DNA from: an uncultured virus (IMG/VR IMGVR_UViG_3300033170_000307)
Lineage: Duplodnaviria; Heunggongvirae; Uroviricota; Caudoviricetes
Length of the DNA: 20,000 nucleotides
IMG/VR virus record: IMGVR_UViG_3300033170_000307
Direction: 5' to 3' (one strand)
Shown here: positions 1,959 through 18,778 of the stretch, piece by piece
Layout of the letters: every line of letters starts with the position of its first letter
Numbering within the stretch: the first letter of the stretch is position 1
Position numbers and translations under genes: made by a program
The notes under the pieces: model-generated
Seen by the model: only the letters and a program-made list of their open reading frames with translations
Databases searched by the model: none
What the model was told of the DNA's origin: nothing

Positions 1959-2190
1959 GAGTGCCTCGATGAGAGCTGCGATGAACCGGCATGGTAGTGG
2001 TTCTTGGAGAACGTGTCAAGAAGGCAACCGAATCGGTTGGGCGAAAAACGGGCTAGCTTTATGTCCGTGGGTGCCATAGTCTGAGAATGGGCGCGAGTCG
2101 TTTCCAACGAATAAATGCCCCTGGTCTATAACCTGTTTATACTTCGTTGCGTGCTATCCTGCGCGTATGATGCGCGCAATCCTGTGCACC

Positions 2191-2239
2191 AAAAAACTGA
2201 AAAAAAGGTCTTGACTAATGCCGGATATGGTGGTATGGT
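2191..2239 (+). promoter_or_regulatory. sigma70-type promoter with A-tract UP element and extended -10
   Basis: TTGACT (2211-2216), 17-bp spacer, TGn-TATGGT (2234-2239); A-tracts at 2191-2206. Confidence 0.75.
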
Positions 2240-2395
2240 AAGGCGTTTCAAGCAACAAGGGCACCTTGACAACGCAGGAAGGGCGCACTCCTGCTGCATA
2301 GCAGATACGCAAGAAACCTGACGTTCCTGCGCTATTGGCGCAGGCATGGTTTCCCTTTCGCAAGACGTTACACCTGTCGCATGAAAGGGAAGTCA

Positions 2396-3442
2396 ATGAA
2401 GGCACAGCAGCAGTATCAAGATGAGTATCGCAACGAGCATCTAGCGCGCTATGCTGACGCTCCAGAGGGGTACGTGCAAGGGGTACGGCAGAAGGGTATC
2501 CTGAATCCGAAAGCATACCTTGTGGCGCTTTGGTGTGGGGATGGACTCCGCGCCCTCCGCGCCCTTGAGGGGGAGGAAAAGAAGCGCGCCTCCCGCGCCT
2601 TCCGAAGGACTGAGGCAAAACTGAGGGAGGGTGGCACCTTTACGGCATCTTCCCTCCTCGCGTGCATTAAGGCGGCGTTCCTCGCCCTAACGGCGGTCCC
2701 CTCCTTGTCACAGGACTTCGCTTCCGAAGTGGAGTTCGTGGCAAAGTCGGCAGACCTCGCCGACAAGGACCTTGGCGAGACCATTCGCCTCCTCGCTGGT
2801 TACAGAGGGTGTGGAGGAAAGTCCTCACGAGGCGAGGACTTGAGCGACGAGGGAAAGAGGGGGCAGGCTTACATACGCGCATGTCGCGCGGTAAACGGCA
2901 TCGCAGGCAAGCCGAGAAATATCCTGCGCAAGACACAGGTTATCCGTAACCTGTGCCAAGACTCGCCCTTCGGCGAGGCCTTGTGCGAGGTGGTCCTGTA
3001 CCTCGTAAAAGTGAGGCAAGCAATGGAGCTGTTTCTCTCCTGCCTCACAAACCCGGACGTTTCCGCCGATGTGACCGCTGAGGCTTGCGCTGAATACGTG
3101 ACGCTGAGGCTAGGGGTCGCCGAAGTCCTGCAGGAGTTCAAGACGCGAGGCGGGGCCCTCTACGACGCGTATATTGAAAAGGCCAAGGAAAAGCGCGCTG
3201 AGGTCCTGCAGGAGAAGGCGGAGGCGGAGGCGGAGGTGGGTACAATCAAGTTCCGTAGGTCCCTTGACGGAGGGCGGACTTGGACTGACGAGGAGGTTCC
3301 GCTGAGCAAGCCGCAAGGCAAGATGCGCAACCGTAGGCGAGTCCACGGAATCCAGACAGTCTCGTGGGAAGTCCTGCAGGAGAAGGCGTGGAGGCAGGAA
3401 GAGGCGCTGCAGGAAGCGGAGGAGGAGGCAGTCTGGGAGTAG
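2396..3442 (+). CDS. hypothetical helical protein, ~348 aa (alternative start 2381)
   Basis: Long ORF between a promoter and a terminator; AAAGGGA upstream of ATG 2396; no family recognised. Confidence 0.85.
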   Translation: MKAQQQYQDEYRNEHLARYADAPEGYVQGVRQKGILNPKAYLVALWCGDGLRALRALEGEEKKRASRAFRRTEAKLREGGTFTASSLLACIKAAFLALTAVPSLSQDFASEVEFVAKSADLADKDLGETIRLLAGYRGCGGKSSRGEDLSDEGKRGQAYIRACRAVNGIAGKPRNILRKTQVIRNLCQDSPFGEALCEVVLYLVKVRQAMELFLSCLTNPDVSADVTAEACAEYVTLRLGVAEVLQEFKTRGGALYDAYIEKAKEKRAEVLQEKAEAEAEVGTIKFRRSLDGGRTWTDEEVPLSKPQGKMRNRRRVHGIQTVSWEVLQEKAWRQEEALQEAEEEAVWE

Positions 3443-3446
3443 AGAC

Positions 3447-3485
3447 AAAAAGGGCCCGCGCCGAGAGGCGCGGGCCCTTTCGTTT
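3447..3485. terminator. intrinsic terminator, probably bidirectional
   Basis: 14-bp stem AAAGGGCCCGCGCC-GAGA-GGCGCGGGCCCTTT with A-run before and T-rich run after, at the convergence of + and - genes. Confidence 0.85.
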
Positions 3486-3736
3486 GTGTAGCCAGGTGTT
3501 GGCGTTAGAGGCTGAGCTGCTGCTGGGGGTGGGTGGGGATGATTGCGGATGGGGCATGAACTGAACGGCAATCATCCTGGAGCCAAGTTTCCTGAACGGT
3601 CTTGGCGTTAGAGCCCAGCCCCTGCCCCCGCTGCTGTGCGCAGGATTGCGGGTTGGTCTTGATATGAACGGCCCGTCTCTCGGGCCCATGTTTTCCTGTC
3701 TACACTCTACGGCGCACGATTGCGGGTAGGAATAGC

Positions 3737-3764
3737 AACGGGCCGGCCCGAAGGCCGGCCCGTT
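3737..3764 (-). terminator. hairpin after the 113-aa gene
   Basis: 12-bp perfect stem with a C-UUCG-G loop on the minus strand; weak U tract. Confidence 0.6.
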
Positions 3765-3773
3765 CGTCCGTGG

Positions 3774-4115
3774 TTAGGCGACGGCCTCCGCGTTGGCGCC
3801 GAGTGCGATAGCGGCCCGTTCGTGGGGATAGCGGCCGAAGTTGGCATTGAAGACTTCGGCTTGCGCGCGGATGAAGCTGAGGGCGCGCGGCCCGGTGAAG
3901 TTGGGGTATCGACCGAAGGTGCGCCGATACCAGTTGCGATTGGCGTGGTCATCGCCATAGGGCGCGACGGCGAGGAGGTCCAGCGGCACGCCGGTGTAGA
4001 CTTCGGCGACGGGTTTCGGGTGATTCTTCGACGGCCCCTGCTGGTACAGGTCACCCTTGCGGAAATTGACCTGCGCGTTCGGCTTGTAGTACACTTGGTT
4101 CGGGTTCGTGCGCAT
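3774..4115 (-). CDS. hypothetical protein, 113 aa
   Basis: Fills one motif A unit; purine-rich leader; followed by a hairpin. Confidence 0.75.
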   Translation of the reverse strand: MRTNPNQVYYKPNAQVNFRKGDLYQQGPSKNHPKPVAEVYTGVPLDLLAVAPYGDDHANRNWYRRTFGRYPNFTGPRALSFIRAQAEVFNANFGRYPHERAAIALGANAEAVA

Positions 4116-4278
4116 AGCCTATCACTTCCCTATGGTGTGTTGTACGTCCGTCCTACACTACTGTGCGCATGATTGCGGGCCGACCTCCTCGGCCCTACAG
4201 AAGAGAGTTTAGCATAGCAGAAGAGTTGTGTAAACTACTTTCTTACACTACGTATGCGCACGATTGCGGCCCGGTCGT

Positions 4279-4338
4279 CTACCCAAAGAGTGCGGCGAGT
4301 CCTAACATCACGAGTCCGATGAGTGCGAGTGCTATCAT
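4279..4338 (-). CDS. 19-aa hydrophobic microprotein MIALALIGLVMLGLAALFG
   Basis: GGAGGT 5 nt before the ATG; fills one motif A unit; translated by hand. Confidence 0.6.
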   Translation of the reverse strand: MIALALIGLVMLGLAALFG

Positions 4339-4533
4339 AGGCGACCTCCGAAGTGTAGTTGGTACACTACCCGGCGCACGATTGCGCGGCCCTTGGCGTT
4401 AGAGCCCAGCCCTGGCTCACGGCGGCGCTGGATGATTGCGTTTGTGACTTTCGCTGAACGGCACTGAACAGGGAGCCATGGAATCAGGAGGGGCCGAAGT
4501 CCCTCCCTACATCACTGGGCGCACGATTGCGGG

Positions 4534-4797
4534 CTACTCTGCGTCGAGCTCTACCCGTCCGGTCATATCGGTGAGCTTGCGCTGGCGCAGGATTGCGATG
4601 CGCGTCTGCGCGTGCTGGGCGCGCAGGGCGGCGACCGCCTGCGTGAAGGCGACAATGAGCACGGCGGCGGCCAGGGCGCAGCAGCCGGGGATGATGTCGC
4701 CCCGCTGCAGGTCGTGGGCCTTGAGGAATTGGTAGTAGTGGACCGAGAAGACACCGACCAGTGCTGTGATGATGTGGCTGATGATGAGTCGTGTCAT
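4534..4797 (-). CDS. two-TM membrane protein, 87 aa (MTRLIISH...)
   Basis: GGAGG RBS; two hydrophobic stretches; stop abuts motif A. Confidence 0.7.
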   Translation of the reverse strand: MTRLIISHIITALVGVFSVHYYQFLKAHDLQRGDIIPGCCALAAAVLIVAFTQAVAALRAQHAQTRIAILRQRKLTDMTGRVELDAE

Positions 4798-5056
4798 GCG
4801 TCTGCCCTCCGGCATGTTTTTGGTGCGTACACAGCTATGCGCACGATTGCGGGGGCGGGGGCGGGGGCGACGGTGCCCCCGGCTCCCCGGCACGACTTCC
4901 ATACGCTTCCGCCACCACTTACCCCGCAGGGCCTCTAGAAGGCGGGTGGCGGACAACGTAGCAACACTCAGCGCATAGGCATCACCTTTGGTAGGGGGAG
5001 TTGCCGGAGGTTCGCGTTCGCTTACTCCGTACACTACTCTGCGCACGATTGCGGCC

Positions 5057-5125
5057 CTACTGCCGGGGCGGCGGGTAGCAGTAGGACATCAGGTTGAGCA
5101 GCAGCGCGACTATGTACATCGGCAT
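5057..5125 (-). CDS. 20-22-aa microprotein (MP)MYIVALLLNLMSYCYPPPRQ
   Basis: GAGGTG upstream; stop 2 nt from motif A; translated by hand. Confidence 0.45.
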   Translation of the reverse strand: MPMYIVALLLNLMSYCYPPPRQ

Positions 5126-5156
5126 CACCTCACACGACTGGGCGCACGATTGCGGC

Positions 5157-5237
5157 TCACTCACCTGCCGGGAAGAGCCACGCGAGGAAGTCGAGTGTCT
5201 TCTCCAGACAGACGGGCAGCATCACCAGCAGCCACAT
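5157..5237 (-). CDS. 26-aa microprotein MWLLVMLPVCLEKTLDFLAWLFPAGE
   Basis: Fills one motif A unit, stop 1 nt from the motif; no clear SD. Confidence 0.4.
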   Translation of the reverse strand: MWLLVMLPVCLEKTLDFLAWLFPAGE

Positions 5238-5369
5238 AGGGCATCACATCATGCCATTGTGCGCATGATTGCGGCCGGCCGCAGTGCCTGGCGTTAGAGC
5301 CCAGCCCCTGCCCCCGCTGCTCTGCGCACGATTGCGGTTAAGACTTCGATTGAACGGCTGAACAGAAGA

Positions 5370-5403
5370 GCCAAGGGAAAGCAGGTGTGAGCCTTCCCTT
5401 GGC
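5370..5403. terminator. hairpin beside motif B copy 4
   Basis: GCCAAGGGAA...TTCCCTTGGC inverted repeat. Confidence 0.4.
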
Positions 5404-5752
5404 CCTCCGGTGTACCTGTGTGCCTTCCCCGGAGAGGGCGGAGGCGTTGAGTTAGGCGCCTCCGGCAGCCGCTAGTCTGCGATGCCGGGACGGTGGGTAG
5501 CTCACCTTTGCAGGTGCCCGAACCTCTCTAGAACCCACCAAGTTCATCTTGGGATAGGCAGCAGGATTACTCTGTACACTACTCTGCGCAGGATTGCGGG
5601 TGGCTTTGGCGCTGGTCTGGCGCCGCTTTTGAGCCCGCTTTTCGCCCGATTGAGACGGCGAGCGTCTCACGCGATGTTTCTGGGCGCCACCCGCTTCATA
5701 CACTACTGTGCGCATGATTGCGGGGGAGGGGTTGTCTCCCCCGCGCACCTGT

Positions 5753-6145
5753 CTACATACTGTCGGCGGCGACCATTCCGGTCGTGGCCACGCCGAAGCG
5801 CGCCTGCAAGACCTCGGCGTGCTTCTCTTGCGCGCGGCGCTGGTCGTGCTCCACGGTGCGGCGGTACCCGGTGTCATGCTTCATGCGATAGTCGTGCAGC
5901 GCCTGCCACGCGGTCTTGTAGACCGCTTCCGTTTCGGCGGTGCGGTTGCGCATCATGGCGTGGAAGGCGCGGACTTCCGCCTGCTTGAGGTCGTGCACCG
6001 GGTCCGCTTCCGCTTCCGCCTGCCGGGCGGCGAGGTGGCGGCGCTTGGAGGCGGTGAGCCGAGCGCAATACTGCTCAAACTCCCCCTCCTCATACTGGAA
6101 GTTGTGACGGGAGTCGGGCTTGAGGGTCTTCTGCACGCGTTTCAT
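5753..6145 (-). CDS. hypothetical helical protein, 130 aa
   Basis: AGGTGAGG RBS; fills one motif A unit. Confidence 0.75.
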   Translation of the reverse strand: MKRVQKTLKPDSRHNFQYEEGEFEQYCARLTASKRRHLAARQAEAEADPVHDLKQAEVRAFHAMMRNRTAETEAVYKTAWQALHDYRMKHDTGYRRTVEHDQRRAQEKHAEVLQARFGVATTGMVAADSM

Positions 6146-6332
6146 GTTGCCTCACCTGTTAGGTGGTATTGGTCAGGTTGACACCTGACACTACTCTGCG
6201 CACGATTGCGACACAATTACCCCTTGGGATGATTGGCTCTGGCGTTAGAGCCCGGCGCCCCGGCACGGCAGGGGCACGATTGCGGATGTGTGCAATCGAT
6301 TGAACGGTCTTGAACTGGGACCCATGAAATGG

Positions 6333-6358
6333 AAAAGCCCCCGGCTCTCACCGGGGGC
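6333..6358 (-). terminator. intrinsic terminator
   Basis: GCCCCCGG/CCGGGGGC stem followed by UUUU on the minus strand. Confidence 0.7.
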
Positions 6359-6386
6359 CCTTCCGCAATCATCTAGCCGCGCCGCA

Positions 6387-6533
6387 TCAGCGTGCCTCCT
6401 TGGGTATGAGTGGCTGCACACGCCACTTCGGGCGCGTGATGTTCTGGTTCGGGCGGTTCCACGCGCAGCCAACGCTGCAGCCGACTTGGCCGCAGCGCGG
6501 GCACTTGCCTTCGTCACTCTGCCTGTAGGGCAT
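6387..6533 (-). CDS. 48-aa Cys-rich protein (CPRC...CSVGC)
   Basis: GGAGGT RBS, ATG 6533. Confidence 0.65.
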   Translation of the reverse strand: MPYRQSDEGKCPRCGQVGCSVGCAWNRPNQNITRPKWRVQPLIPKEAR

Positions 6534-6564
6534 ATCCAACCTCCAGAGTAGCTGGGTTCTTACA

Positions 6565-6861
6565 CTACTCTGCGCAGGATTGCGGCTTCGCCCGCCAGTG
6601 CCTGTCGCGCACAAGCGTGCGCATACGCAGGGCGGGGTGCTCCGTGATGCGTTCGTCTACCATCCGCGCTTCTTCGTCGCTGGCAGTGAAGACCAGGACC
6701 TCCGGCTGATTCTCCCAGCCGTGCTCGTGCTCCCAGGTGGGGTTCGGCCTCTTCAGGCCGGCCAGCAGGACCTCCCAGTCCACCGGCTCCTGCACCGGGA
6801 AGGTGATGCCCGTCTTGTCATAGCCGGTGCTGCCCGTCGCCCGTATGTATCGCCGTCTCAT
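6565..6861 (-). CDS. hypothetical protein, 98 aa (MRRRYIRATG...)
   Basis: GGAGGT RBS; reads through the motif A core and stops at its TAG. Confidence 0.75.
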   Translation of the reverse strand: MRRRYIRATGSTGYDKTGITFPVQEPVDWEVLLAGLKRPNPTWEHEHGWENQPEVLVFTASDEEARMVDERITEHPALRMRTLVRDRHWRAKPQSCAE

Positions 6862-6925
6862 GATGCAACCTCCACAGCGTAGTGGGTTCTTACACCACTC
6901 TGCGCACGATTGCGGGGCAGAGCCC

Positions 6926-7366
6926 CTACCCGTTGGGGTCGGGGGGCTCCACCTCTGCCGGGATGATTTCGCAGTAGACCTCATCGAGTTCGCCCTCGTC
7001 ATTCAGTTCGTCGGGGCGGTGCTCCTGAATCCACTCCTCCATGATTCTGTAGCACTCCTGTTCGGCGTGCGCCGGCATCACGTTGCTGCAGAAGACCGCG
7101 ACCGTGAGCTTGACGTAGCCGCTGCCGATGTGGAACATATAGGCGGGGTCGGGCTCGGGGAAGTCGGGCGTCTCGCTGGCGCGCTGCTTGAGCCATTCAT
7201 CGCGCGCGAGATTGCGGCGCCGGGCGTACTCTGCGCCGCGCTCCCATGAGGGCAGTTCGTCCAGGTCCTTGCCGCCAGGGAAGGGTACTTCGTCGCCGGC
7301 CTGATTCAGGTAAATCATGGCGACCGCCTGCCGCGCTTCGTCGCTGTGCAGTCCGGGTGTGGGCAT
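6926..7366 (-). CDS. acidic hypothetical protein, 146 aa
   Basis: GGAGGT RBS; fills one unit. Confidence 0.8.
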   Translation of the reverse strand: MPTPGLHSDEARQAVAMIYLNQAGDEVPFPGGKDLDELPSWERGAEYARRRNLARDEWLKQRASETPDFPEPDPAYMFHIGSGYVKLTVAVFCSNVMPAHAEQECYRIMEEWIQEHRPDELNDEGELDEVYCEIIPAEVEPPDPNG

Positions 7367-7420
7367 GTGAGACCTCCAGAAGTGAGTGGTTACACTCCTA
7401 TGCGCACGATTGCGGCCGCC

Positions 7421-7759
7421 CTACGACGGCGGCCAGATGTCGTAGCAGCGGGTATTGCCGCAGCGCCCCACAATGAGGTGCAGGGGAGCGAGCGCCGGGT
7501 ATTCGGGGAAGCCGTAGAGCGTGCAGAAGACCGCCCGCATGACATCGGGCGTGCCACGGCGCAGCTTCTGATTGCGCTTCGTCGCTTCGGGGTGCTCCCA
7601 GACCTGTTTCTCCTCAGGCGTCCACGTATGGCGGCCCGACTCGATGCGGAAGCCCGCGTTCGTCAGAGCATCAATCGGGTGGATGATGTGGCCGGGCGCC
7701 AGTTCTTCTGTCTGCTTGAGTGCGGCCAGCGCAGCCGCGAGCGCTTCGTCGTAGGACAT
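7421..7759 (-). CDS. hypothetical protein, 112 aa, CxxC...CxxC
   Basis: GGAGGTCGCATC-ATG; CTLY and CGRC motifs in the C-terminal part (only one full CxxC). Confidence 0.75.
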   Translation of the reverse strand: MSYDEALAAALAALKQTEELAPGHIIHPIDALTNAGFRIESGRHTWTPEEKQVWEHPEATKRNQKLRRGTPDVMRAVFCTLYGFPEYPALAPLHLIVGRCGNTRCYDIWPPS

Positions 7760-8142
7760 GATGCGACCTCCACAGTGTAGTGGGTACACTCCTCTGCGCA
7801 CGATTGCGGGGCACACGCCGACAGCCACTCTTTCTCCCCGTGCCTCTGCTTCGCCTCATGAGGGGCACTCCACAGAGCGAACACTTGGGAGCGAGAGGAT
7901 TGGCCTGCCGGCGTCTGCCTCGCCATCTGGCGTTAGACCTGGGCCCCTGGTCCACACGTCTGCGCATGATTGCGGGTCGGATTACGATTGAACGGCAACT
8001 GAACGGGGACCTAGAAAACTGCGACCGGACGGCGCACTGGGCATTGCTGCTCCCGCTGCTACGCCCCTGTAGCCGGCTACGGGGTTCGCTGCTGTTACTC
8101 GGGATGCGCCGTCCGCTCACATCTCTATGCGCACGATTGCGG

Positions 8143-8469
8143 CTACCCCTCGTCGCCGAGGGGCACCACTATCATCACGCCACTGAGCACGAGCACCGGG
8201 GTGGGCTCGGGCACGCCGTAGACGTGGGCATACGTCTGCAGCGCGGGGTCGGTGCTCAGCAGGCTCACGTCGCGTACCCAGTCCTTGCCACTCTCACCGA
8301 TGATAGTGCAGAGGTGGGCGCAGCACTGCACGGGGCAGGTGAAGCGCGCGGCGTTGCAGCGCACGCACACTTGGTGCATTCGGTCGAGCTTGGCCAGTTC
8401 GTCAACGTCCGGGCCGTTCAGGTAGCCGTGGTTCCTGACAATCTTCTCCAGTAGCTTCTGCAGGGGCAT
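8143..8469 (-). CDS. Cys-rich hypothetical protein, 108 aa
   Basis: GGAGGTCGCATC-ATG; CVRC...CPVQCC; stop directly abuts motif A. Confidence 0.75.
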   Translation of the reverse strand: MPLQKLLEKIVRNHGYLNGPDVDELAKLDRMHQVCVRCNAARFTCPVQCCAHLCTIIGESGKDWVRDVSLLSTDPALQTYAHVYGVPEPTPVLVLSGVMIVVPLGDEG

Positions 8470-8541
8470 GATGCGACCTCCCGGTATGGGGTTGGGGGCA
8501 GGTCACCCTGCCCCCTATACTACTCTGCGCACGATTGCGGG

Positions 8542-8766
8542 CTACTTGATGGCGTACTTCGCGTGGAAGCGCTCGGTGTGGCTGAAGCTCTGGGTGATGC
8601 AGCGGCCGATGCGCACGGCCCCCGCGTTGCCCACGAAGACCTTGCGGTCCTCGCTCATCTTCGGGTGCGTGAAGCAGCGGTACTTGCGCCCTCTGGTCTG
8701 GGTCTCGGTGTACCCGAGTTCCTGCAGCTTGGCGATGACCTGCTCCGTCTTGGTCAGCTTGGCCAT
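8542..8766 (-). CDS. basic hypothetical protein, 74 aa (MAKLTKTEQ...)
   Basis: GGAGGT RBS; stop abuts motif A. Confidence 0.75.
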   Translation of the reverse strand: MAKLTKTEQVIAKLQELGYTETQTRGRKYRCFTHPKMSEDRKVFVGNAGAVRIGRCITQSFSHTERFHAKYAIK

Positions 8767-8842
8767 GGGTGCGACCTCCATAGATGTGATGGATACGTGG
8801 GGAGCACTGCGGCTCCCCACGATACTCTGCGCACGATTGCGG

Positions 8843-9127
8843 CTACCGTATCGTGCGACCGGGGCGCTGGTCCACAGCCTCCTGAATGTGATGGCCCACG
8901 TCGTCGCCGAGTTGCTCGGCGATGGGCTTGGTCTTGTCGTCGCCTGCAGGCAGCCCGGCCTTCTCGCGGAAGGCGGACTCCACTGCGCCGATAACGCTGC
9001 TGGTGGCATAGACGTGCCCCTTCTGGCGGGGGAACTTCTCGCCGCGCAGGGTCACCTGCATACCCTGAAAGACGCCCATGTACCAGACCTCACGGACGCG
9101 ACACGCTTCCTTCTGAATGGGTCTCAT
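8843..9127 (-). CDS. hypothetical protein, 94 aa (MRPIQKEA...)
   Basis: GGAGGT RBS; stop abuts motif A. Confidence 0.75.
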   Translation of the reverse strand: MRPIQKEACRVREVWYMGVFQGMQVTLRGEKFPRQKGHVYATSSVIGAVESAFREKAGLPAGDDKTKPIAEQLGDDVGHHIQEAVDQRPGRTIR

Positions 9128-9327
9128 GACGACCTCCCTGTCGGGGTGTGTGCTACACTGTTGTGCGCACGATTGCGGCAGGCTTGTCGTGTACCGCCAA
9201 CGGCCTTCCTGCTGGTCGGTGCCAACCGTAGCCAGTTGGAAGTGGCAATGCCATTGACGATACCCGACAAGCCTGGCGTTAGAGCCAGGCCGGCCGCTCT
9301 CCACACATCTCTGCGCAGGATTGCGGC

Positions 9328-9356
9328 AAGGGAGGCCGCCTGAACGGCCTCCCTTT
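9328..9356. terminator. hairpin inside motif B copy 7
   Basis: AAGGGAGGCCG-CCTGAA-CGGCCTCCCTT, just past the stop at 9363. Confidence 0.55.
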
Positions 9357-9362
9357 CGGGAC

Positions 9363-9806
9363 CTAGAATGTGGGAACCGTCTCGAAGCCGCGCCCCGTGA
9401 AGATGGGGACGCTCGGCTCCGGCTCCTCCTGCTCCTCCCACAGGTGCCGGGGCTGCAGCGGCCACCCGCTCTTGTCATAGAGTTGGCCGCAGTTGTCGCA
9501 GCAGGACGTGAAGTCATCGAGAGTCACTTCGGCTCTGCACACTACACAGCGCGCGATTGCGGGCTCGACGTAGCTCCATTCATACTTCTGCACGTAGATG
9601 GGGAAGCGCTTGGCGCCCGTGATGAAGTCGGTGACGACCTTGCGATAGTTGTCAAGCCACGTCTGGGACTTGCCCTCGAAGTCCACACAGCCGCGCTCGT
9701 CGGACTTGAAAGCGAAGCCGGAGCCGCGCCCGTGCACATCGCACGCCAGACTGTACTCCACGCAATCGACCGGCTTGGCCTCACTGATGATTTCCGCCTG
9801 GGGCAT
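9363..9806 (-). CDS. zinc-ribbon-like protein, 147 aa
   Basis: GGAGGT RBS; CVVC...CDNC. Confidence 0.8.
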   Translation of the reverse strand: MPQAEIISEAKPVDCVEYSLACDVHGRGSGFAFKSDERGCVDFEGKSQTWLDNYRKVVTDFITGAKRFPIYVQKYEWSYVEPAIARCVVCRAEVTLDDFTSCCDNCGQLYDKSGWPLQPRHLWEEQEEPEPSVPIFTGRGFETVPTF

Positions 9807-9841
9807 GGTACGACCTCCTGAGTTCATGGTTCGTGCTTACA

Positions 9842-10015
9842 CTACTCTGCGCACGATTGCGGAGACAGGACTGGCTTGCCGGCGCGCACGACTCGGTAAG
9901 TGCCGCTGAATTGGGGGTGCTTGCCTGCCACGGCCAGCCGCGCATAGCGCATGTCGGACTCGTCGCGGATGGTGGCGAAGTCCATATAGGGCTCCAGGAC
10001 CACATCATCGGGCAT
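9842..10015 (-). CDS. 57-aa protein MPDDVVLEPY...PQSCAE (not in the ORF track)
   Basis: GGAGGT RBS; translated by hand; stops at the TAG inside motif A. Confidence 0.65.
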   Translation of the reverse strand: MPDDVVLEPYMDFATIRDESDMRYARLAVAGKHPQFSGTYRVVRAGKPVLSPQSCAE

Positions 10016-10087
10016 GGTACGACCTCCTGTGAATCAGGGTGCGGGGAGGGTTGCCCCTCCCCGATACTTCTCTGCGCACGATTGCGG

Positions 10088-10369
10088 CTACTCGATGGGC
10101 GGCGGGACCGGGATAGACCATGCCGCTTGGATGACGTTGGCCGGAGCGTCCGGGTACTTGCGGTCGGGAATCTCGAAGCCCTTGGCGGCGAAGTTGAGTT
10201 CGCCATTGGGCAGGGTGGGGACTTCCACCACGTCACCGCGCCGGGGCACGTTCAGGTCGTTGGCCGCGACCTCGTAGAAGTGGCCCTCCTGCGTGAGTAG
10301 GCGCACACCCAACATACCAAAGTCATTGCGACTCTCTGAGACGCCGAAGCACTTCATCTCGACTGGCAT
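10088..10369 (-). CDS. hypothetical protein, 93 aa
   Basis: GGAGGT RBS; stop abuts motif A. Confidence 0.75.
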   Translation of the reverse strand: MPVEMKCFGVSESRNDFGMLGVRLLTQEGHFYEVAANDLNVPRRGDVVEVPTLPNGELNFAAKGFEIPDRKYPDAPANVIQAAWSIPVPPPIE

Positions 10370-10443
10370 GAGACGACCTCCTGTGAGACAGGGTGCGGGG
10401 GCGGTTGCCCGCCCCCGATACTACTCTGCGCACGATTGCGGGG

Positions 10444-10803
10444 CTACCGTTCCCGCATCTGCACGTCATCGAGCGAGGGCGTATCCTCGCAGGTGCATTC
10501 GCTGTCATAGTTGCCGCAGCGGCGGCAACGGCCATCGCGGCCCCCGTCTTCGTCTTCGTCGCTCTTGGGCTTGGCGGGCTGCCATTCGCCGTCAATCAAG
10601 ACGCCGAGGAAGGTGCGCCCCCCGCTGCCCCCGCTGCCCCCGGTGGCGTAGACGTTGAAGTGGTCCTGCCCGCCGCCGTGGTGGGCGACAACCTCGATAC
10701 CGCAGTGCCAGCCGTTGACGTGGGCGGTGAGCCCCGTCTGCTTGTCACCGAGCCGCGACGCTTCGCCACGACCGCCCCGCAAAGTCCCTCTGAACTGTGC
10801 CAT
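10444..10803 (-). CDS. Gly-rich hypothetical protein, 119 aa, C-terminal Cys cluster
   Basis: GGAGGT RBS; MAQFRGTLRGGRG...; CRRC...CTC. Confidence 0.75.
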   Translation of the reverse strand: MAQFRGTLRGGRGEASRLGDKQTGLTAHVNGWHCGIEVVAHHGGGQDHFNVYATGGSGGSGGRTFLGVLIDGEWQPAKPKSDEDEDGGRDGRCRRCGNYDSECTCEDTPSLDDVQMRER

Positions 10804-10876
10804 GTGCGACCTCCCGTGAATTGGGGTGCGGGGAGGGTTGCCCCTCCCCGATACTACTCTGCGCACGATTGCGGGG

Positions 10877-10948
10877 CTACTTCCACGCTGCGCCCAGACC
10901 CTCCTGCATGATGTCCTGCACGGCCTTGACCTGAGCGGCGACGCTCAT
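10877..10948 (-). CDS. 23-aa peptide MSVAAQVKAVQDIMQEGLGAAWK
   Basis: TAATG overlap with the upstream stop; stop 2 nt from motif A. Confidence 0.45.
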   Translation of the reverse strand: MSVAAQVKAVQDIMQEGLGAAWK

Positions 10949-11157
10949 TAGGACACCACCTGGCCCTGGCGGGCGGCGCGGTTGCGGACGCGGCGGCCTG
11001 CGGCGCGGTGGTTGAGCATGGCCTGCGTGTCGGCGAAGGTGAGCTTGCGGGCGTTGCCGTTGCGGTCCTTCGGGGTGCGGCGCTGGCTGCAGGAGCTGCA
11101 GTTGGGCGTGCCGTTGGGGCGGGAGCAGGTGTTCGCATTGCACGTCGAGATGACCAT
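10948..11157 (-). CDS. Cys-containing basic protein, 69 aa
   Basis: GGAGGT RBS; C-x4-C...CSSC. Confidence 0.65.
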   Translation of the reverse strand: MVISTCNANTCSRPNGTPNCSSCSQRRTPKDRNGNARKLTFADTQAMLNHRAAGRRVRNRAARQGQVVS

Positions 11158-11232
11158 GGGTGAGACCTCCAGAGGTATGGGTTGGGGCAGCAGATGCTGC
11201 CCCGTTGTACACTTGTCTGCGCAGGATTGCTG

Positions 11233-11601
11233 CTACCCGAACTTCGTGGGGTTGGCCTCCACGAGGTCGCCCCAGCTACCGACCCAGAAGCGGCCCTGCC
11301 GAGCGTCATAGAGCAGGGTGGCGTCGTAGGTCTCCCCGGTGTTGCAGTAGTACACACCGTGGCCGAGGGTCTCGACCCCGAAGGTGCCGAGCAGGTGGTC
11401 GGCGATGAGGAGAATGTTGCTGCTGCGGTTGCCCGCAGGCAGGTAGTCGTGCTTCCCCGGCTGCACACCGAGCATATCGGCGACCGGGATAGACTTGACC
11501 TCGCGCTTGATGAGGGCCCGAAGCAGTGCCAGCTTGCAGGTGGCTATCTTCGGGAAGAGAGCCTGCAGAGTCTTCATCGAAGCGAAGCCGTGCTGTGCCA
11601 T
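11233..11601 (-). CDS. hypothetical protein, 122 aa
   Basis: GGAGGTCGCATC-ATG; stop next to motif A. Confidence 0.8.
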   Translation of the reverse strand: MAQHGFASMKTLQALFPKIATCKLALLRALIKREVKSIPVADMLGVQPGKHDYLPAGNRSSNILLIADHLLGTFGVETLGHGVYYCNTGETYDATLLYDARQGRFWVGSWGDLVEANPTKFG

Positions 11602-11629
11602 GATGCGACCTCCATGCTGTGATGGGTGC

Positions 11630-12139
11630 TTACACTACTGTGCGCAGGATTGCGCGCAGGTCGCTGGCGTGATGGCGGGTGCTGGCGGAGACGGCGGCGT
11701 CAGAGGGCATGGCCTGTCCTTCGGGCATGTTGTCCAGCACCTTAGCGTTCGCTTCCCACCTGTCCGCGAGCTTCTCCAGTTCCTCCTCCAGCGTGGGAAT
11801 GCTGTCGCCGAAGTTGATGCAGCCCCGAAGCTGGATGGGGTTCAGGACCTCGGGTCCGTGCTGCTCGCAGGCGTCCGTGACGATGTGCTGCGCCAGTTCG
11901 TAGGCGGACGCTGGCGGCAGGTCGGTGCGGCGTGTGAGCAGTTGTGTATCCTGCAGCGTGGGCGTCTTGTCTTCCCCGGCCAGATGCACGCGGCCGGCAG
12001 TGACGCAGCCCAGTTCGTGCCGGATGAGGACGAAGCCCGGCTTGCCCACCTGCTCCTCGTCCACTTCCTGCTCGGGCAGCCAGAGGCAGCCCACGTCGTA
12101 CTTTGTCGCCGGGTCGTTCCCCGGCTGTCCGCTGACCAT
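11630..12139 (-). CDS. hypothetical protein, 169 aa (MVSGQPGND...)
   Basis: GGAGGT RBS; C-terminus runs through motif A. Confidence 0.75.
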   Translation of the reverse strand: MVSGQPGNDPATKYDVGCLWLPEQEVDEEQVGKPGFVLIRHELGCVTAGRVHLAGEDKTPTLQDTQLLTRRTDLPPASAYELAQHIVTDACEQHGPEVLNPIQLRGCINFGDSIPTLEEELEKLADRWEANAKVLDNMPEGQAMPSDAAVSASTRHHASDLRAILRTVV

Positions 12140-12191
12140 GATGTGACCTCCATGCGGTGATGGGTACACTGCTCTGCGCAGGATTGCGGGC

Positions 12192-12701
12192 TCAGCCATA
12201 GACTTCGGACTGCGCCCGCTTGTGGAAGTCTTCCGGCGTCTCGCTCCAGTGCTGCTTGAGAAGCCAGTCCCGGCGCTTGCCGTCGCGTACCTGGTAGGCC
12301 AGCAGGCCACAGTAGGCGGTGATTTCGTAGCCCAGCCAGTACATGGTGATTGCGGCGTTGCCGCAGAAGTCCCCGGCGCGGCTCATGCTGTACTGCGGGC
12401 CGGGAGGTGTGGCGAGTTGCGGGTCAACGTCCCTCGATTCGCTGGTGGTCTCGACGCCCGTGGCATACAGGCGCTCGATGACCCAGAGCGTATCGCCAGA
12501 CAGCAGCTTGTAGCAGGTCTGCTGGCGCGGGTAGCTGCTGTAGTAGTAGATGCCTGCGGCGTCGTGCACGTGAGCGTGCAGCGTCTCGGCGCTCTCCAGC
12601 TTGGCCGTCGCCATCTGGCCCCTGGCCTGCTGTGCCGTGATGTAGCTCTTGGTGCCGTCTGGCCCCTCCAGCAGGTAGACCTTGCGCGTGTACGTCCTCA
12701 T
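12192..12701 (-). CDS. hypothetical protein, 169 aa (MRTYTRKVY...)
   Basis: GGAGGT RBS; stop 2 nt from motif A. Confidence 0.8.
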   Translation of the reverse strand: MRTYTRKVYLLEGPDGTKSYITAQQARGQMATAKLESAETLHAHVHDAAGIYYYSSYPRQQTCYKLLSGDTLWVIERLYATGVETTSESRDVDPQLATPPGPQYSMSRAGDFCGNAAITMYWLGYEITAYCGLLAYQVRDGKRRDWLLKQHWSETPEDFHKRAQSEVYG

Positions 12702-12873
12702 GAGCGACCTCCCGTGAATTGGGGTGCGGGGAGGGTTGCCCCTCCCCGATACTACTCTGCGCACGATTGCGATGGGCCTGGCGTTAGAGCCCGGCCGGCC
12801 GGCGCCCGCGCGTGCGCGCGATTGCGGGTTGGGAATCGTCTGAACGGCAACAGAACAGGGAGCCAGGAATACG

Positions 12874-12910
12874 AAAAGCCCCCGGCCATTGCGTCTTCAG
12901 GCCGGGGGCT
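12874..12910 (-). terminator. intrinsic terminator
   Basis: GCCCCCGGCC/GGCCGGGGGC stem followed by UUUU on the minus strand; beside motif B copy 8. Confidence 0.65.
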
Positions 12911-12985
12911 CTCTCATTTCTGTGCTCAGAAACCTGACAGTCTGCTTATTGAGCGCGCTGCCTGCGCTGGGGGGCTGGGGCTTCG

Positions 12986-13180
12986 TCAGCCATACCCTGT
13001 CGGGTACAGGGGAATGGGCCTCACCTCCAACGGTTCGACTGCGCTGCCTTGACTTAGTAGATGGCAGCAGGACAACGGCTTGGACAGCAGCGCGTCAGTG
13101 GGCGCCACGTCTTGTGGGGGCAGAGCAACGAAGCTCAGGCCAACCAAGACAACCGTCATTACTACCATGCGCAGCCTCAT
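12986..13180 (-). CDS. possible 64-aa protein with hydrophobic N-terminus
   Basis: Follows a degenerate motif A; no clear SD. Confidence 0.35.
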   Translation of the reverse strand: MRLRMVVMTVVLVGLSFVALPPQDVAPTDALLSKPLSCCHLLSQGSAVEPLEVRPIPLYPTGYG

Positions 13181-13225
13181 CCCGCAGTGATGTACAACTC
13201 ACGTATCTGAGCGCTTGATTGCGGC

Positions 13226-13525
13226 TCAGGAGTTTGCTACGGCGTCCACGTCCGTGACGTGCAGGCGCTTGCCGCGCAACTGCAGGCGCACGTGGATGGG
13301 GAGCTTGGCGGGCTGGCCGATGGCGCGGTACTTGACCGTGGCGCTGGTGTTGCCACTCGGGAGCACCAGAGCGTGCTTGCCCGTGGTGGCCACGTCATCG
13401 AGCTTGTAGAGCGCATCGCTCAGGACGAACTGCTCGGGCAGGGCGGTGCCGGGCTTCTTGATGTGCTCGGCTACGTCGGTGAGGCTACGGAAGACCAGAG
13501 CCAGCGTCGGCTTCTTTCTGGGCAT
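13226..13525 (-). CDS. hypothetical protein, 99 aa (MPRKKPT...)
   Basis: GGAGGT RBS; stop abuts motif A. Confidence 0.75.
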   Translation of the reverse strand: MPRKKPTLALVFRSLTDVAEHIKKPGTALPEQFVLSDALYKLDDVATTGKHALVLPSGNTSATVKYRAIGQPAKLPIHVRLQLRGKRLHVTDVDAVANS

Positions 13526-13577
13526 GTTCAACCTCCACAGCGTGTAGTGGGTTACACTACTTGGCGCACGATTGCGC

Positions 13578-14042
13578 CTATGCTATCGCGACCAGCGGGG
13601 TGCCGTCAACCTGTTTCGTGCTGGCGCTGGCCACAGCGGCGCGAGCGCGGAGCATGAGACCGGGTACGAACTTGGGCGCGCCCATGCCCGCAGGCACACC
13701 GGCGGCTTCCTGAACGGTGCCTTCGATGACCCGCAGGAGTAGGGGCTGGGTGTAGCCCACACGGTCCTCGGCCCATTGCAGCGTAAGGTCGTACATACTG
13801 TCGGTGTGAGTGGCCTTGGCGGTGAACGCGTCCAGCAGCGGAGCGCTATGCACAGTGCACAGGTACACGCCTTCCATGGTGCGGCCGTCTACGGTCAACT
13901 GCCGGGTGGAGCGAGCGTGTGGCGTGCGGGTGTACTCACGCATCCACGGTTCCAGCTTCTCGAACGGCACGAAGTAGTGCGCATGGCCGGAGCACAGCTT
14001 GCAGGTGTGCCTGGCCTGCCTCATCCGGGGAGGCATTGGCAT
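13578..14042 (-). CDS. hypothetical protein, ~154 aa, CxxC...CxxH
   Basis: Fills one unit; CKLC...CTVH; start uncertain. Confidence 0.7.
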   Translation of the reverse strand: MPMPPRMRQARHTCKLCSGHAHYFVPFEKLEPWMREYTRTPHARSTRQLTVDGRTMEGVYLCTVHSAPLLDAFTAKATHTDSMYDLTLQWAEDRVGYTQPLLLRVIEGTVQEAAGVPAGMGAPKFVPGLMLRARAAVASASTKQVDGTPLVAIA

Positions 14043-14118
14043 TGGGCATCATCCCTTCGGGGAAGAAGTGTGGGGGCAGGTCTCCCCGCCCCCTACATCT
14101 ATCGGCGCACGATTGCGC

Positions 14119-14649
14119 CTACTTCTCGGGGACGACCCACTCGTCCTCGGGCTCGAAGAGCCCGTCCTCGATGTCGTCGAGCTTGGTCAGGATGAAGTGG
14201 GTGATGCAGGTACCCTTGTCCTGCACCAATGCGGTGAAGTCCATCTGCAGCTTCGTCATGTTGCGAATGGTGGCGGCGGTGATGCTCTCCGGCTCGTGGC
14301 CCTCACGCTGCAGGACGAACTCAGCCTCGTCGGGCATGTCGGCGGGCAGGTTGATGATGCCCTGCTCCAGAGCCACCATGCTAAGGTTCCAGATAGCGTC
14401 ATGCACGCGCTTGACCTGCTCGCGCATCTGCCGGGCTTCCATCTGGACGCGCTCATAGCTGTCGCTCGGCGACCAGTCGTCGTTGGCACAGCCCTCTGCC
14501 AGCGCCATCCGCTTGGCCCGCTGCCAAAGCGACTTGGCCGGGAAGAGTAGCCCGGCGATGGTGGCGGCGAACTCCTTGCCGAACTGCTCGCGCAACACCT
14601 CGCCATTGGGCATGATGTTGACGCTGCCGATGACCTTCTCTCCACTCAT
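14119..14649 (-). CDS. hypothetical protein, 176 aa
   Basis: GAGGT RBS; stop abuts motif A. Confidence 0.8.
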   Translation of the reverse strand: MSGEKVIGSVNIMPNGEVLREQFGKEFAATIAGLLFPAKSLWQRAKRMALAEGCANDDWSPSDSYERVQMEARQMREQVKRVHDAIWNLSMVALEQGIINLPADMPDEAEFVLQREGHEPESITAATIRNMTKLQMDFTALVQDKGTCITHFILTKLDDIEDGLFEPEDEWVVPEK

Positions 14650-14724
14650 GTCTCGTACCTCGTTAGGGTTAGCGGTCGGGGGCGGTCGCCCGCCCCCGTT
14701 ACACTTCTGTGCGCACGATTGCGC

Positions 14725-15171
14725 CTACAGCCAGCCGCGCACCCGCTTCATCAGCAGGCAGTCATCGTGCCGCCGCCCAGACCCCTTGCGGTGCAGGTAG
14801 TTCTGGACGAAGGCATTGAAGGTGATGCCCACGCTCTGCCCGTACTTCGCAACCGTGTCGAAGTCGTGACCCTCGACCAGTTGGCAGAGGCAGTATATGC
14901 TCTTCTCGGTGACCTCGAAGAAGTCGCCGTCGTCGTCGGTGGGGAAGCCGGCCCAGTCGGGGTCAGTCTCAGCCGCCATCTGGCCGGGGTGCTTCAGTTC
15001 GTGAGCGAAGCCAAGGTCCAGCCGGTCGCCCTCGCGGGCTGCGAGCAGGGCCTGCACGTCGCTGGGGTCGAGGTGCTCGCCTTCCTTGAAGTTGACGATA
15101 CACCAGACCTTGTAGTTGCTCCCGTCGCGGTAGAGCACGTTCATCTGTACGCGATGCTTCTGTTCAGGCAT
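14725..15171 (-). CDS. hypothetical protein, 148 aa
   Basis: GGAGGT RBS; stop abuts motif A. Confidence 0.8.
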   Translation of the reverse strand: MPEQKHRVQMNVLYRDGSNYKVWCIVNFKEGEHLDPSDVQALLAAREGDRLDLGFAHELKHPGQMAAETDPDWAGFPTDDDGDFFEVTEKSIYCLCQLVEGHDFDTVAKYGQSVGITFNAFVQNYLHRKGSGRRHDDCLLMKRVRGWL

Positions 15172-15204
15172 AGGCAGGTGACCTCCGGCCGATGAAAGGT
15201 TGTA

Positions 15205-15708
15205 CTACTCAGCGCAGGATTGCGCTTTGGCCTTCTCCCCGATGGCCTCGATGGCGTCGGTCGGCTCTTGGCTGGCGCTGAATTGCCTCAGACACAGGAG
15301 ACCGTGCTCGATGCTGGCGAACGCGCTGGCGATGAGGTAGCGCTGGCTGACACCATCCCCCTCCTTGACTTCCTGCTGCACCTGCCCGGCGCTCAGGCGG
15401 TAGGGCTTGAGCCAGAGGCTCAGGCCCGCTTTCAGTTCATCGAGGTTCTCAATCATGACGTGCACATTGGTCTCGGCGCTGAAGCGGCCCCCGAAGGTGC
15501 ACGAGACGTACTCAGGCGAGACGTAGACCTGCTGCTCGGCGGGCACGTCTTTGAGGTGGCTGTACCAACTGCCATGACTGTGGTCCCAGACCCGGTAGCC
15601 CAGCGGCTGGGTGCGGCACTTCTCACAGAAGCACAGGGTCGCGGCGTGGTAGCAGTGCACGGAGCACGGCACCTGGGGTGTGCAGGACTTGCGGCGCCGG
15701 ACTTTCAT
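15205..15708 (-). CDS. hypothetical protein, 167 aa, Cys/His-rich N-terminus
   Basis: GGAGG RBS; CSVHC...CFCEKC; stops at the TAG inside motif A. Confidence 0.75.
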   Translation of the reverse strand: MKVRRRKSCTPQVPCSVHCYHAATLCFCEKCRTQPLGYRVWDHSHGSWYSHLKDVPAEQQVYVSPEYVSCTFGGRFSAETNVHVMIENLDELKAGLSLWLKPYRLSAGQVQQEVKEGDGVSQRYLIASAFASIEHGLLCLRQFSASQEPTDAIEAIGEKAKAQSCAE

Positions 15709-15756
15709 GTTGCGGCCTCCTCGGTAGGGTTGTACTCCTCAGCGCACGATTGCGGC

Positions 15757-16239
15757 TCAGTAGTCCATCGAAGCCAGTGCCCCGCGCACCCGGCGCTCAG
15801 GGTCAGGCGAGCGCATATCATCCAGCGCCTGCTGGTGCTGCGCCCGGTCCTTGGCATTGCTGTCGAGGATGACGTTGCACAGTTCCACGAACTTCTCGAT
15901 GGCCGGGGCCTTGGACCTGAAGACGAAGACGGTACGGGTCCCTGCCGGGTCGTTCGGCACCCGGTGGATGCGCTTGCGCAGGAAGGCCTTCTGCCTCTTG
16001 TCGGCCAGCCCGAACCGGTCGCGGGCTTCGTACTGCTTGAGCACCTTGCGTACTTCTTCGGCCCGCATTTCGGGCCCGACAGTCCAGAGTTCAGTGGGGC
16101 AGTTGACATGCGCGAGGGAGGGGCGAAAGCCGGAGTTGATGCAGCCGTAGGGTTCCGGCCCGCCGAGGATGGCACCTCTCTTCAGGCGACCATGCTTGCG
16201 CACGTCATCAGCAGTGAAGGGCTTGCGTTGCTGAGACAT
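15757..16239 (-). CDS. basic hypothetical protein, 160 aa
   Basis: GGAGGT RBS; stop abuts motif A. Confidence 0.8.
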   Translation of the reverse strand: MSQQRKPFTADDVRKHGRLKRGAILGGPEPYGCINSGFRPSLAHVNCPTELWTVGPEMRAEEVRKVLKQYEARDRFGLADKRQKAFLRKRIHRVPNDPAGTRTVFVFRSKAPAIEKFVELCNVILDSNAKDRAQHQQALDDMRSPDPERRVRGALASMDY

Positions 16240-16454
16240 GGGGGGCGACCTCCATTGGATGATGGGTACACTACTGTGCGCACGATTGCGGAGCGGGCGG
16301 CCTGCCGGGATGTCGGTCGGCAGGCCCCCGCCGCGCTGTAGTCCCTACCAAGGACAGCTTGATGGCGTTAGAGCCGCGCCCGGCGCGCCGGCAGGGTGGC
16401 AGGGAACCCTTTGGGAGGCCCTGAACGGCCTCGCTCTTGGAGCCATGATTTCCG

Positions 16455-17096
16455 TTAGCCGCTCATCGCGTCAATGAGCATCTGCATGACTTCGGGCAGT
16501 TCCTTGCCGCAGTGCGGGCAAGCGTAGCCCTCGTGGTTGATTTCGCCACCCATGTCGCCGTCGTCCATGCTGTCGTAGCTGTACTCGAAGCGCCCATCCA
16601 CCAGTTCTTCGCACTCCAGCGTCACGCCCTAGTCGGTCGTCACCTTGTCGGCTTCGAGCGTGTCGAGCACGTCGCCACAGTGCGGGCACTTGGGGTAGCC
16701 CGTCTCGTCGTCCACGTCGAACTTGAACTCGGCGGCTGCGTGCTTGAGAGCGATGTCGAGGATGTGCTGCACGTCGTTCATGTGGCCGCGCAGAGCCATG
16801 ATGAAGCAACCGAGGACCTCGGTGCCCTTGTTGCCCCTCGCACCCTGCCACGCGCTGTCTACGACCTTGGCGAGCAGGTGGTCGGCCAAGCGCTTGCCCC
16901 GCGCCACGTTGCTCGGCTCTTCGATGTCACGAGTGGTCACCTCGAAGTGCGAGATGGCCTCCAGAGCGTGCTGGACGCTGGCCGGGAACTGGATGATGTC
17001 GCCGGAGAGCGAGCTCCGGTCATTGGACGCGATGCGCTCCGCCTCACGAAGCACTTGGTTGACCTTGCGTTCATCTGCGGGTGGTCTCTTGGGCAT
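16455..17096 (-). pseudogene. zinc-ribbon protein (213 codons) with an in-frame TAG at 16629-16631
   Basis: AAGGAGG RBS; CPHC...KVTTD*GVTLECEE...YACPHCGKEL...MSG-TAA continues in frame. Confidence 0.7.
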
Positions 17097-17231
17097 GTAG
17101 CCCTCCTTGGTAGGGGAATTTGATGGGGGAGGGAGGAGTGCGCACTCAACGAGCCGTGGGTAGCTGCTAGGACTACCAAGTCGTCTCGCTGTCGCCCTCC
17201 CCATCCAATACTCTGCGCACGATTGCGGCGC

Positions 17232-17975
17232 CTACTCGGTAGCAGGCCAACCCTCGCGCGATGTCTGGTACAGGTCGTCGGGGTCCCCCGCCGCCTCCAG
17301 CGCTTCCATCCGGTCGCGCTCCGTCACCATCTCCTCCGCGTCCTCGTCATAGCGCTCAGGAAGCCCGTACATCTCTCCCATGTAGGCGCCTTGGGAACTG
17401 GAGCGCCCTCCGAACTCGCTGCTCAGCAGGAAGAAGGGCACTGTGATGAACTCGTCGCCTTGGTACAGCCGGATTTCGGCGTCCCAGAAGGTCTCGTCCA
17501 CGTAGCCGCTGCCGCTGTGCGAGCAGAAGACCACGACTTCGAGGCCCTCGGCGTCCGCCAGCATCTTGAGCGCTCCGATGAAGATGCTGTAGTACGGTTC
17601 GGCATAGTCTTCCCGTAGCTCCATCTTCTCCCACTCGAAGCCCAGGTCTTCGATGTAGAACTCGTCTTCCTCCTGCAGGACTTCGAGCACCACGTTTAGG
17701 TACTCGTGGACAGCCGCCAGCTTGAACTCCTGGGCCTTGTCGAAGCGCCAGCGCAGCAGACGGCACAGTTCAGCAGAGCCACCCAATTCCATCATCTGCC
17801 CGAGGCACGACGCGTTGGAGTAGCTGCGCCGCTGCTTGTCCGTGGGCTCCTTGCCCTTCTCCTTGGGCCAGCGCTCGATAAGTGCGTGCGCCCGCCGTTG
17901 GAGCTTCTGTGTCTCGTGCGCCGCCAGCAGCCAGTGCCGCGCAAAGGTGCCGGCCGGCAAAGTCAGGTCGCTCAT
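17232..17975 (-). CDS. acidic hypothetical protein, 247 aa
   Basis: AAGGAG RBS; fills one unit. Confidence 0.85.
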   Translation of the reverse strand: MSDLTLPAGTFARHWLLAAHETQKLQRRAHALIERWPKEKGKEPTDKQRRSYSNASCLGQMMELGGSAELCRLLRWRFDKAQEFKLAAVHEYLNVVLEVLQEEDEFYIEDLGFEWEKMELREDYAEPYYSIFIGALKMLADAEGLEVVVFCSHSGSGYVDETFWDAEIRLYQGDEFITVPFFLLSSEFGGRSSSQGAYMGEMYGLPERYDEDAEEMVTERDRMEALEAAGDPDDLYQTSREGWPATE

Positions 17976-18058
17976 GTCATGCTCCTTGGTAGGAAGTAGT
18001 GTATGGTGTCGTCCGCCGACACCCTACACCCCTCTGCGCACGATTGCGGCGTGGTATC

Positions 18059-18778
18059 TCAAGCATTGCGCACTTCCCACTCCGCCGCATAGGCCGTGCG
18101 GTAGCAGTCGACCCATGCTCCCGGCTGCCAGTGGTCGGGTACAAAGCGTGGCCACCCGGCCGGGTCGTCGAGAAGCTCGCCTACCGCAATGTCGGCCGCC
18201 TCCTCGGCGTCGCGCAAGTCCTCGTGGCGGTGAGGCCAGTCCTCGGCCGCCTGCGCGATGGCCATGGCCTGCGGCTCCCGCTGGTCTTCATCGGCCTTGC
18301 GCGGCCATGTGACGCCACCGGGCCATTCAACGTGCGAGGCGTCCCCTCGTGCGGGCGCCTCGTCGTCGCTAAGGTACCAGACGGGCTCACAGTCATCATT
18401 GTCGGCCGTGGCGCGGAGCACCACATACCCGTCTTCCGCGTCGAGTATCTCGCTAACCACAGCCAGCTCGTCGGCTGTCAGTTCGCGGTCCGTGCCCGGC
18501 TCTGCGTTCTGCAGGGCCATCAGTTCGTCGTATTGCTCCGTGCTCTCCGTCACGAGTGCCCTGTGCATCATGCTCGCCTCCCGCCGCCCGTGGCGGCTAG
18601 TGTGTTGTTCCACTACGCGTCGCCGTTCTGCACGCGCCCTGCCTCTCCTCTTCAGCGCGTGATGATTGCCCATACGACGAACAACAGCCCTACTGCGGTG
18701 TATGCTGCAACCTGAGCGACGATGCGGTGGCCGGGGTCGGCCATCCAGCCTGAAAAGAACTGGTCTGCTACTGGCCAT
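18059..18778 (-). CDS. hypothetical protein; start 18778/18781 or internal start 18571 (170 aa)
   Basis: GAGGAG near 18781 and GGGAGG before ATG 18571; the acidic part from 18571 looks clearly coding. Confidence 0.7.
   Translation of the reverse strand: MASSRPVLFRLDGRPRPPHRRSGCSIHRSRAVVRRMGNHHALKRRGRARAERRRVVEQHTSRHGRREASMMHRALVTESTEQYDELMALQNAEPGTDRELTADELAVVSEILDAEDGYVVLRATADNDDCEPVWYLSDDEAPARGDASHVEWPGGVTWPRKADEDQREPQAMAIAQAAEDWPHRHEDLRDAEEAADIAVGELLDDPAGWPRFVPDHWQPGAWVDCYRTAYAAEWEVRNA

Follow-up and report, generated by a model that had tools for sequence, protein, structure and literature searches.

Introduction

The middle promoters of phage T4, as outlined in PMC2988021, carry a MotA box that is centred at −30 and 12 bp away from the −10; a double-wing monomer reads it together with AsiA. 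For phage P1, 11 late promoters sharing a 9-bp inverted repeat bound by the activator Lpa have been described (PMC10695390). The mycobacterial PafBC, a host HTH–WYL heterodimer, serves hybrid promoters in which a −10 and an element at −23 to −28 are present but a −35 is lacking, according to PMC8635444. The PeSL cassettes of T4-type phages, in the account of PMC2839356, are promoter and stem-loop repeats standing before orphan genes and acting as recombination seams. In the terminal small-gene cluster of SIRV2, a shared early upstream sequence was reported, with repression proposed for Aca8, whose own gene carries this sequence (PMC11065993).

Here we analyzed a 20,000-nucleotide stretch of DNA from an uncultured tailed phage (the window), in which a short motif, motif A, is repeated in an array ahead of dozens of small genes and the array end faces a gene for a 348-aa protein. 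The locus resembles the T4 middle system in that numerous promoters combine a sigma70 −10 with a phage box replacing the −35 (at type A sites a predicted pattern), possibly with an early phage reader. Unlike the MotA box, the dyad stands here 4 nt from a −10-like hexamer, and the candidate reader is a mostly helical protein of 348 aa; no AsiA-like gene was found in the 132 kb examined. The inverted repeat of the P1 late promoters is positioned near −22, close to the −23 that we infer for motif A, and in each system a set of promoters shares a short inverted repeat. Unlike P1, there are about 40 sites before small non-structural genes, the dyad spans 12–14 bp and no match to the Lpa family was obtained. 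A −10 without a −35, accompanied by a factor-specific element, is shared with PafBC, unlike which no HTH or WYL match was found here. In the SIRV2 cluster, too, the upstream sequence of the small genes recurs before the gene of a candidate regulator; the promoters there are of the archaeal TATA/BRE kind and the repressor is a 55-aa wHTH protein, as against an orphan of 348 aa from a bacterial phage in our case. PeSLs are presented as complete sigma70 promoters that work without a phage factor (PMC2839356), whereas the type A sites lack a −35.

Genome Setting and Promoter Classes

The window is the last part of a 132,027-bp virus record (linear, 85% complete according to CheckV), and its DNA is also contained in a 215,187-bp metagenome contig, with 21,044 of 21,044 bases identical. 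The genome-wide counts cover the 132,027-bp record, with ~83 kb of the contig lying outside it. Terminase, tape measure protein, DNA polymerase III alpha, DnaB, ligase and TnpB elements are encoded by the record, and the sequencing runs containing the phage DNA came from sludge, wastewater and digesters.

Three promoter classes were predicted in the 132-kb record: sigma70-type (17 sigma70-like patterns), motif A and a late box. The late-type box, CGGAATACTTC, was found 11 times without a mismatch, for the most part ahead of genes for virion and packaging proteins. Its likely reader is the product of a 203-aa sigma-like gene in the replication block (record 12285–12896, minus strand; PHROG sigma, E 6e-5; Pfam Sigma70_r4, E 0.03). 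Since the late box could occupy this protein, motif A would be left without an obvious reader. A 305-aa HTH protein is encoded in the same genome.

Several other features were recorded during the survey. The late-type box, exact or with one mismatch, heads four TnpB/IS605-like copies (record 5021(−), 6971(+), 38350(−) and 78729(−)), as if these elements carried, or inserted behind, a phage late promoter. A Ro60/TROVE-like vWA gene (record 22044–23777, plus strand) has next to it a gap of 1.6 kb containing a sigma70-type promoter, and a Y-RNA-like partner is conceivable. At the end of the record (window 19913–20000), a 28-bp unit occurs three times and forms a GC hairpin closed by GCCA; we take this unit to resemble the stem of a type I-E CRISPR repeat, and the triple repeat could be an assembly artefact. 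In a distant phage (terminase 29% identical), AGCAGGGAGGG words number in the dozens over the two strands and frequently stand directly 5' of start codons, where they look like an extended ribosome-binding signal.

The Motif A Array

The array occupies positions 3500..19906 on the minus strand and comprises 48 core copies, with 42 type A sites and the type B units. The core of motif A is a dyad, CGCA-N4-TGCG. Exact matches to GCAATCVTGCGC number 45 in the 132,027-bp record, of which 44 are minus-strand array copies, as are four of the seven matches with one mismatch. Outside the array only four core matches were found: the two upstream of the 348-aa gene, one exact match at record 77907 and one more at 35869.

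The type A layout consists of the core, 4 nt and a TAGTGT-like (TAnnnT-like) hexamer, with no −35. The A2 and T6 of a −10 hexamer were found together in 25 of the 42 type A sites at register +4 after the core, and only there (0–4 sites in other registers); T at the first −10 position is likewise present in only 25 of 42. No type A site had more than three of six matches to TTGACA at the right distance upstream. As a −10-like register is present and the −35 is missing, a non-standard reader seems to be needed at these sites, and the pattern suggests that motif A is a hybrid promoter with its dyad centred near −23. The TAGTAT hexamer is used as a −10 by a full sigma70-type promoter at 18825. Hairpins begin 10–12 nt after the core in 8 of the 19 sites with a stem, so that transcription starting at GTGTA itself, and with it a phage sigma factor or polymerase, would fit too. 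Searches with the full motif A gave 8 single matches in the GTDB species genomes and 65 in IMG/VR, with no array and no genome with two matches in either collection. The fact that all these matches are single argues against a widespread host regulon.

The type B units, nine by their own anchor word (window 3500–16450, minus strand), contain words at fixed spacing: CCGTTCA, 15 nt, GCAATC, ~28–35 nt and CTCTAACGCCA. Three of them lack the right half of the dyad, and no Rfam match was obtained for these units, which could be small RNAs or a second class of sites. At the array sites 4267 and 18864 (minus strand), a type A element is followed 21–27 nt on by a full sigma70-type promoter, an arrangement predicted to constitute tandem promoters of two classes.

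Control Region of the 348-aa Gene

The preliminary description had placed two core copies, inverted relative to the array, upstream of a sigma70-like promoter of the 348-aa gene. Both were located as claimed: GCTATCCTGCGC (2153–2164, copy 1) and CGCAATCCTGTGCA (2175–2188, copy 2, with its core at 2176..2187) each differ by one mismatch from the core and lie on the plus strand, the array copies being on the minus strand. The pattern TTGACT-17-TATGGT with a TG extension is present downstream of them at 2211–2239 and, together with UP-like A-tracts, makes up the stretch 2191..2239 (plus strand). Taking the start site as 2246, 7 nt after the −10, the dyad centres of copies 1 and 2 would fall at about −88 and −65, the latter copy ending 23 nt before the −35 hexamer. 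The region is divergent: a second sigma70-type promoter, TTGACA-17-TACCAT (1991..2019, minus strand), points leftward from 2019 and is predicted to drive a free-standing HNH endonuclease gene (1467–1958, minus strand) and further leftward genes. The gene for the 348-aa protein (2396..3442, plus strand) was correctly described as convergent with the array end, and between the two lies a hairpin with A/T runs on both sides (3449..3480), a predicted bidirectional terminator.

Among 20,000 dinucleotide shuffles of this 437-bp intergenic stretch, 2 contained two core matches and 250 contained one; the test was post hoc on a chosen region, and the value becomes ~0.0025 allowing for 25 intergenic regions. 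None of the 24 remaining intergenic regions outside the array contained such a pair of core copies. Given this rarity in shuffles and uniqueness among intergenic regions, the pair is probably related to motif A. The upstream copies and the promoter pattern are real sequence features, beyond chance.

The position, strand, promoter and gene given earlier all held; the copies nevertheless depart from the array-type sites in ways not mentioned there. Copy 1 alters an A and copy 2 a C, each of which is invariant in 48 of 48 array copies, and copy 1 is also without the C at −1 that 47 of 48 array copies keep. With a weight matrix, copy 2 scored 15.5 bits and copy 1 less than 8 bits, the array copies ranging from 12.8 to 27.0. 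The AGAGTAGTGTA tail, the −10-like part of the array copies, is absent after both. With invariant bases broken and the −10-like tail missing, the copies do not appear to be array-type promoters. Copy 1 overlaps an ordinary extended −10 word, TG-C-TATCCT, and may be only that. Four TGYGY half-sites (2148..2187, plus strand) are spaced 12, 11 and 12 nt, on one helical face, a pattern found post hoc and without a chance test.

Of the 17 sigma70-like promoters, only two, including that of the 348-aa gene, have a core copy (one mismatch allowed) within 70 nt upstream; the other one is inside the array, which makes the promoter of the 348-aa gene the only one outside. A core copy 21–40 nt ahead of a sigma70-type promoter was also found at three array sites (4 of 52 copies overall), and the layout is therefore not peculiar to this gene.

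Related strains were compared through contigs of four runs, with 40 of 225 differences listed, so that the comparison does not resolve conservation at the level of single bases. In strain X6, whose gene segment is 84% identical (89 other letters in 555), the alignment starts at 2179; 5' of this point, a core-like word at the proximal position is followed by unrelated DNA. Strain X8 covers 2092–2219 at full depth, that is, without a deletion. Hence, at least one copy seems to have been kept at the same distance from the promoter.

The 150-nt leader (2246..2398, plus strand) has a folding z-score of −2.84 and matches no Rfam family. It contains a predicted hairpin hiding the ribosome-binding site and the start codon (2345–2398; z −3.13 for 2340–2405). 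The stretch 2345–2398 is replaced by another sequence in strains X4 and X6.

Properties of the 348-aa Protein

The gene is real, with ten homologues (86, 84, 67, 42, 38, 28, 27, 26 and 26% identity, and one 121-aa fragment), all encoded on contigs of at most 21 kb. The suggestion that the protein could be a new family was upheld, as profile libraries, Pfam and PHROG among them, assign it to no described one; no Pfam, PHROG or PDB sequence match and no similarity to MotA were found. By the tests run, it does not appear to be a member of the MotA, Lpa or PafBC families.

A structure model built from nine sequences (pLDDT 70.9, pTM 0.49) is mostly helical and consists of a helical N-terminal domain, a long helical hairpin (191–279), an Asp-box beta-hairpin (283–302) and an acidic C-terminal helix. 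The fold comparison proposed at the outset was performed and returned only generic helical-hairpin matches, which barely covered the N-terminal domain and assigned no fold. The net charge is near zero. At positions 155, 161, 164, 172, 179 and 184, on two adjacent helices, 8 or more of the 10 aligned sequences have lysine or arginine. Outside the Asp-box, neither an acidic nor a histidine residue is conserved in the ten sequences, and no catalytic-type set was seen. The basic patch 155–184 fits a non-enzymatic nucleic-acid binder.

Profile, sequence and fold searches revealed no DNA-binding fold or family. HTH and RHH profile searches gave no consistent match; one family member matched a PHROG repressor at E 0.077. 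A sigma70-family factor was rejected, as none of nine members matched a Sigma70 profile at E up to 5, and hhalign against the phage's own sigma-like protein gave a probability of 0.1%. A sialidase/BNR-repeat propeller was also rejected, only one Asp-box being present in an otherwise helical model. The same applied to tyrosine recombinases (HxxR unaligned or absent in the ten sequences, no conserved His) and serine recombinases (N-terminal YxRxS absent in nine of ten, with one non-aligned match at 140).

Discussion

The regulatory role proposed in the preliminary description kept its main supports, namely an orphan family, a host-type promoter, upstream copies and a basic patch, and lost its recombinase option. 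The form of it that we favor, tentatively, is that the 348-aa protein is an early, host-transcribed, MotA/Lpa-like activator of the motif A promoters, with feedback sites at its own gene. In such a circuit, the host sigma70 polymerase would transcribe the gene at once from the predicted promoter, and the product would bind the motif A dyad, replacing the absent −35 contact at the array promoters, perhaps through the conserved basic helices 155–184. The two weak sites, centred at about −65 and −88, would tune its synthesis only at a high protein level, and the leader hairpin might further limit translation. In favor of an activator are the need for a reader, the adjacency of the gene to the array, its sigma70-type promoter, the improbable and unique pair of upstream copies, the core-like word kept in strain X6, the conserved basic residues and the confinement of the motif in the GTDB and IMG/VR scans. 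The absence of a match to a DNA-binding fold, the near-zero net charge, the degenerate copies, the same layout at three array sites, the hairpins beginning close to the core, the rival readers and the ~83 kb outside the record count against it, and the activator reading is a fair lead. It is rather doubtful that the protein founds a new fold class of activator which, from a dyad near −23, directs host RNA polymerase to ~40 hybrid promoters, controls itself by way of the weak upstream sites and the translation-blocking leader, and acts as the master switch of the 16-kb cassette array of orphan genes.

Another protein may read motif A, be it the phage sigma-like or HTH protein, the product of a gene in the ~83 kb outside the record or a host activator; the 348-aa gene would then be a member of the regulon, and its product would act early in some other way, e.g., in host takeover. 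This is conceivable, if on the whole unlikely. Upstream-activator sites in class I activation are usually found near a distance such as −65, which is where copy 2 is predicted to lie, and the occurrence of a core before a sigma70-type promoter at three array sites, the sigma-like and HTH genes of the same genome, the size of the contig outside the record and the lack of a recognizable DNA-binding fold in the 348-aa protein all suit another reader. The sigma-like gene, however, sits in the replication block and has a distinct late box available, no core copy precedes the HTH gene (best 5 mismatches), and no GTDB genome has more than one full-motif match, though the host may be missing from that collection. 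The two copies could also be decayed relics that bind nothing, left by a former cassette gene or by a seam gained through inversion or local duplication, the gene having later come to be driven by sigma70. The broken invariant bases and lost −10 tail speak for such decay, as do the appearance of the copies as a local 23-bp duplication and the unrelated upstream DNA of strain X6. The gene also touches the array, where seams recombine on the PeSL precedent as given in PMC2839356, and its GC3 is 0.71, lower than in any of the 30 called array genes (0.79–0.97). The low GC3, on the other hand, also speaks against a typical cassette gene, and a core-like word is kept at the proximal position in a strain 84% identical in the gene; we consider relics improbable.

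A shut-off repressor of the Aca type, under which the motif A promoters would fire early unaided and the protein would later silence them and itself, appears quite improbable. A dyad just 5' of the −10 could block polymerase, the leader hairpin would delay translation, and SIRV2 Aca8 offers a precedent, as described in PMC11065993. The type A sites, lacking a −35 and with the first −10 T in only 25 of 42, are nevertheless unlikely to be strong unaided, and the upstream copies lie at least 23 nt beyond the −35, a placement poorly suited to repression. That the protein is a site-specific recombinase for motif A or B is given hardly any weight. The gene does adjoin a cassette-like array, and type B units carry rearranged joints in strain contigs (loose ends 3603 and 3651). 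No conserved HxxR, YxRxS or HUH motif is present in the ten sequences, though, nor was any recombinase family matched, and homologous recombination between repeats would suffice for shuffling, to judge from the PeSL account (PMC2839356).

Were the activator reading false, a small family of orphans next to promoter copies that have decayed would be left. If it is true, the reader for a large array of repeated promoters in an uncultured phage would be identified, and an activator family without sequence kinship to MotA, Lpa or PafBC would be gained. One protein and a 25-bp promoter would form a compact, directly testable switch. The 348-aa family could in that case also mark arrays of early orphan genes; anti-defence genes are found in arrays of this kind in other viruses. 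Should the protein, in addition, prove to be a master switch with a new fold, similar arrays built on different motifs would be expected beside its distant homologues.
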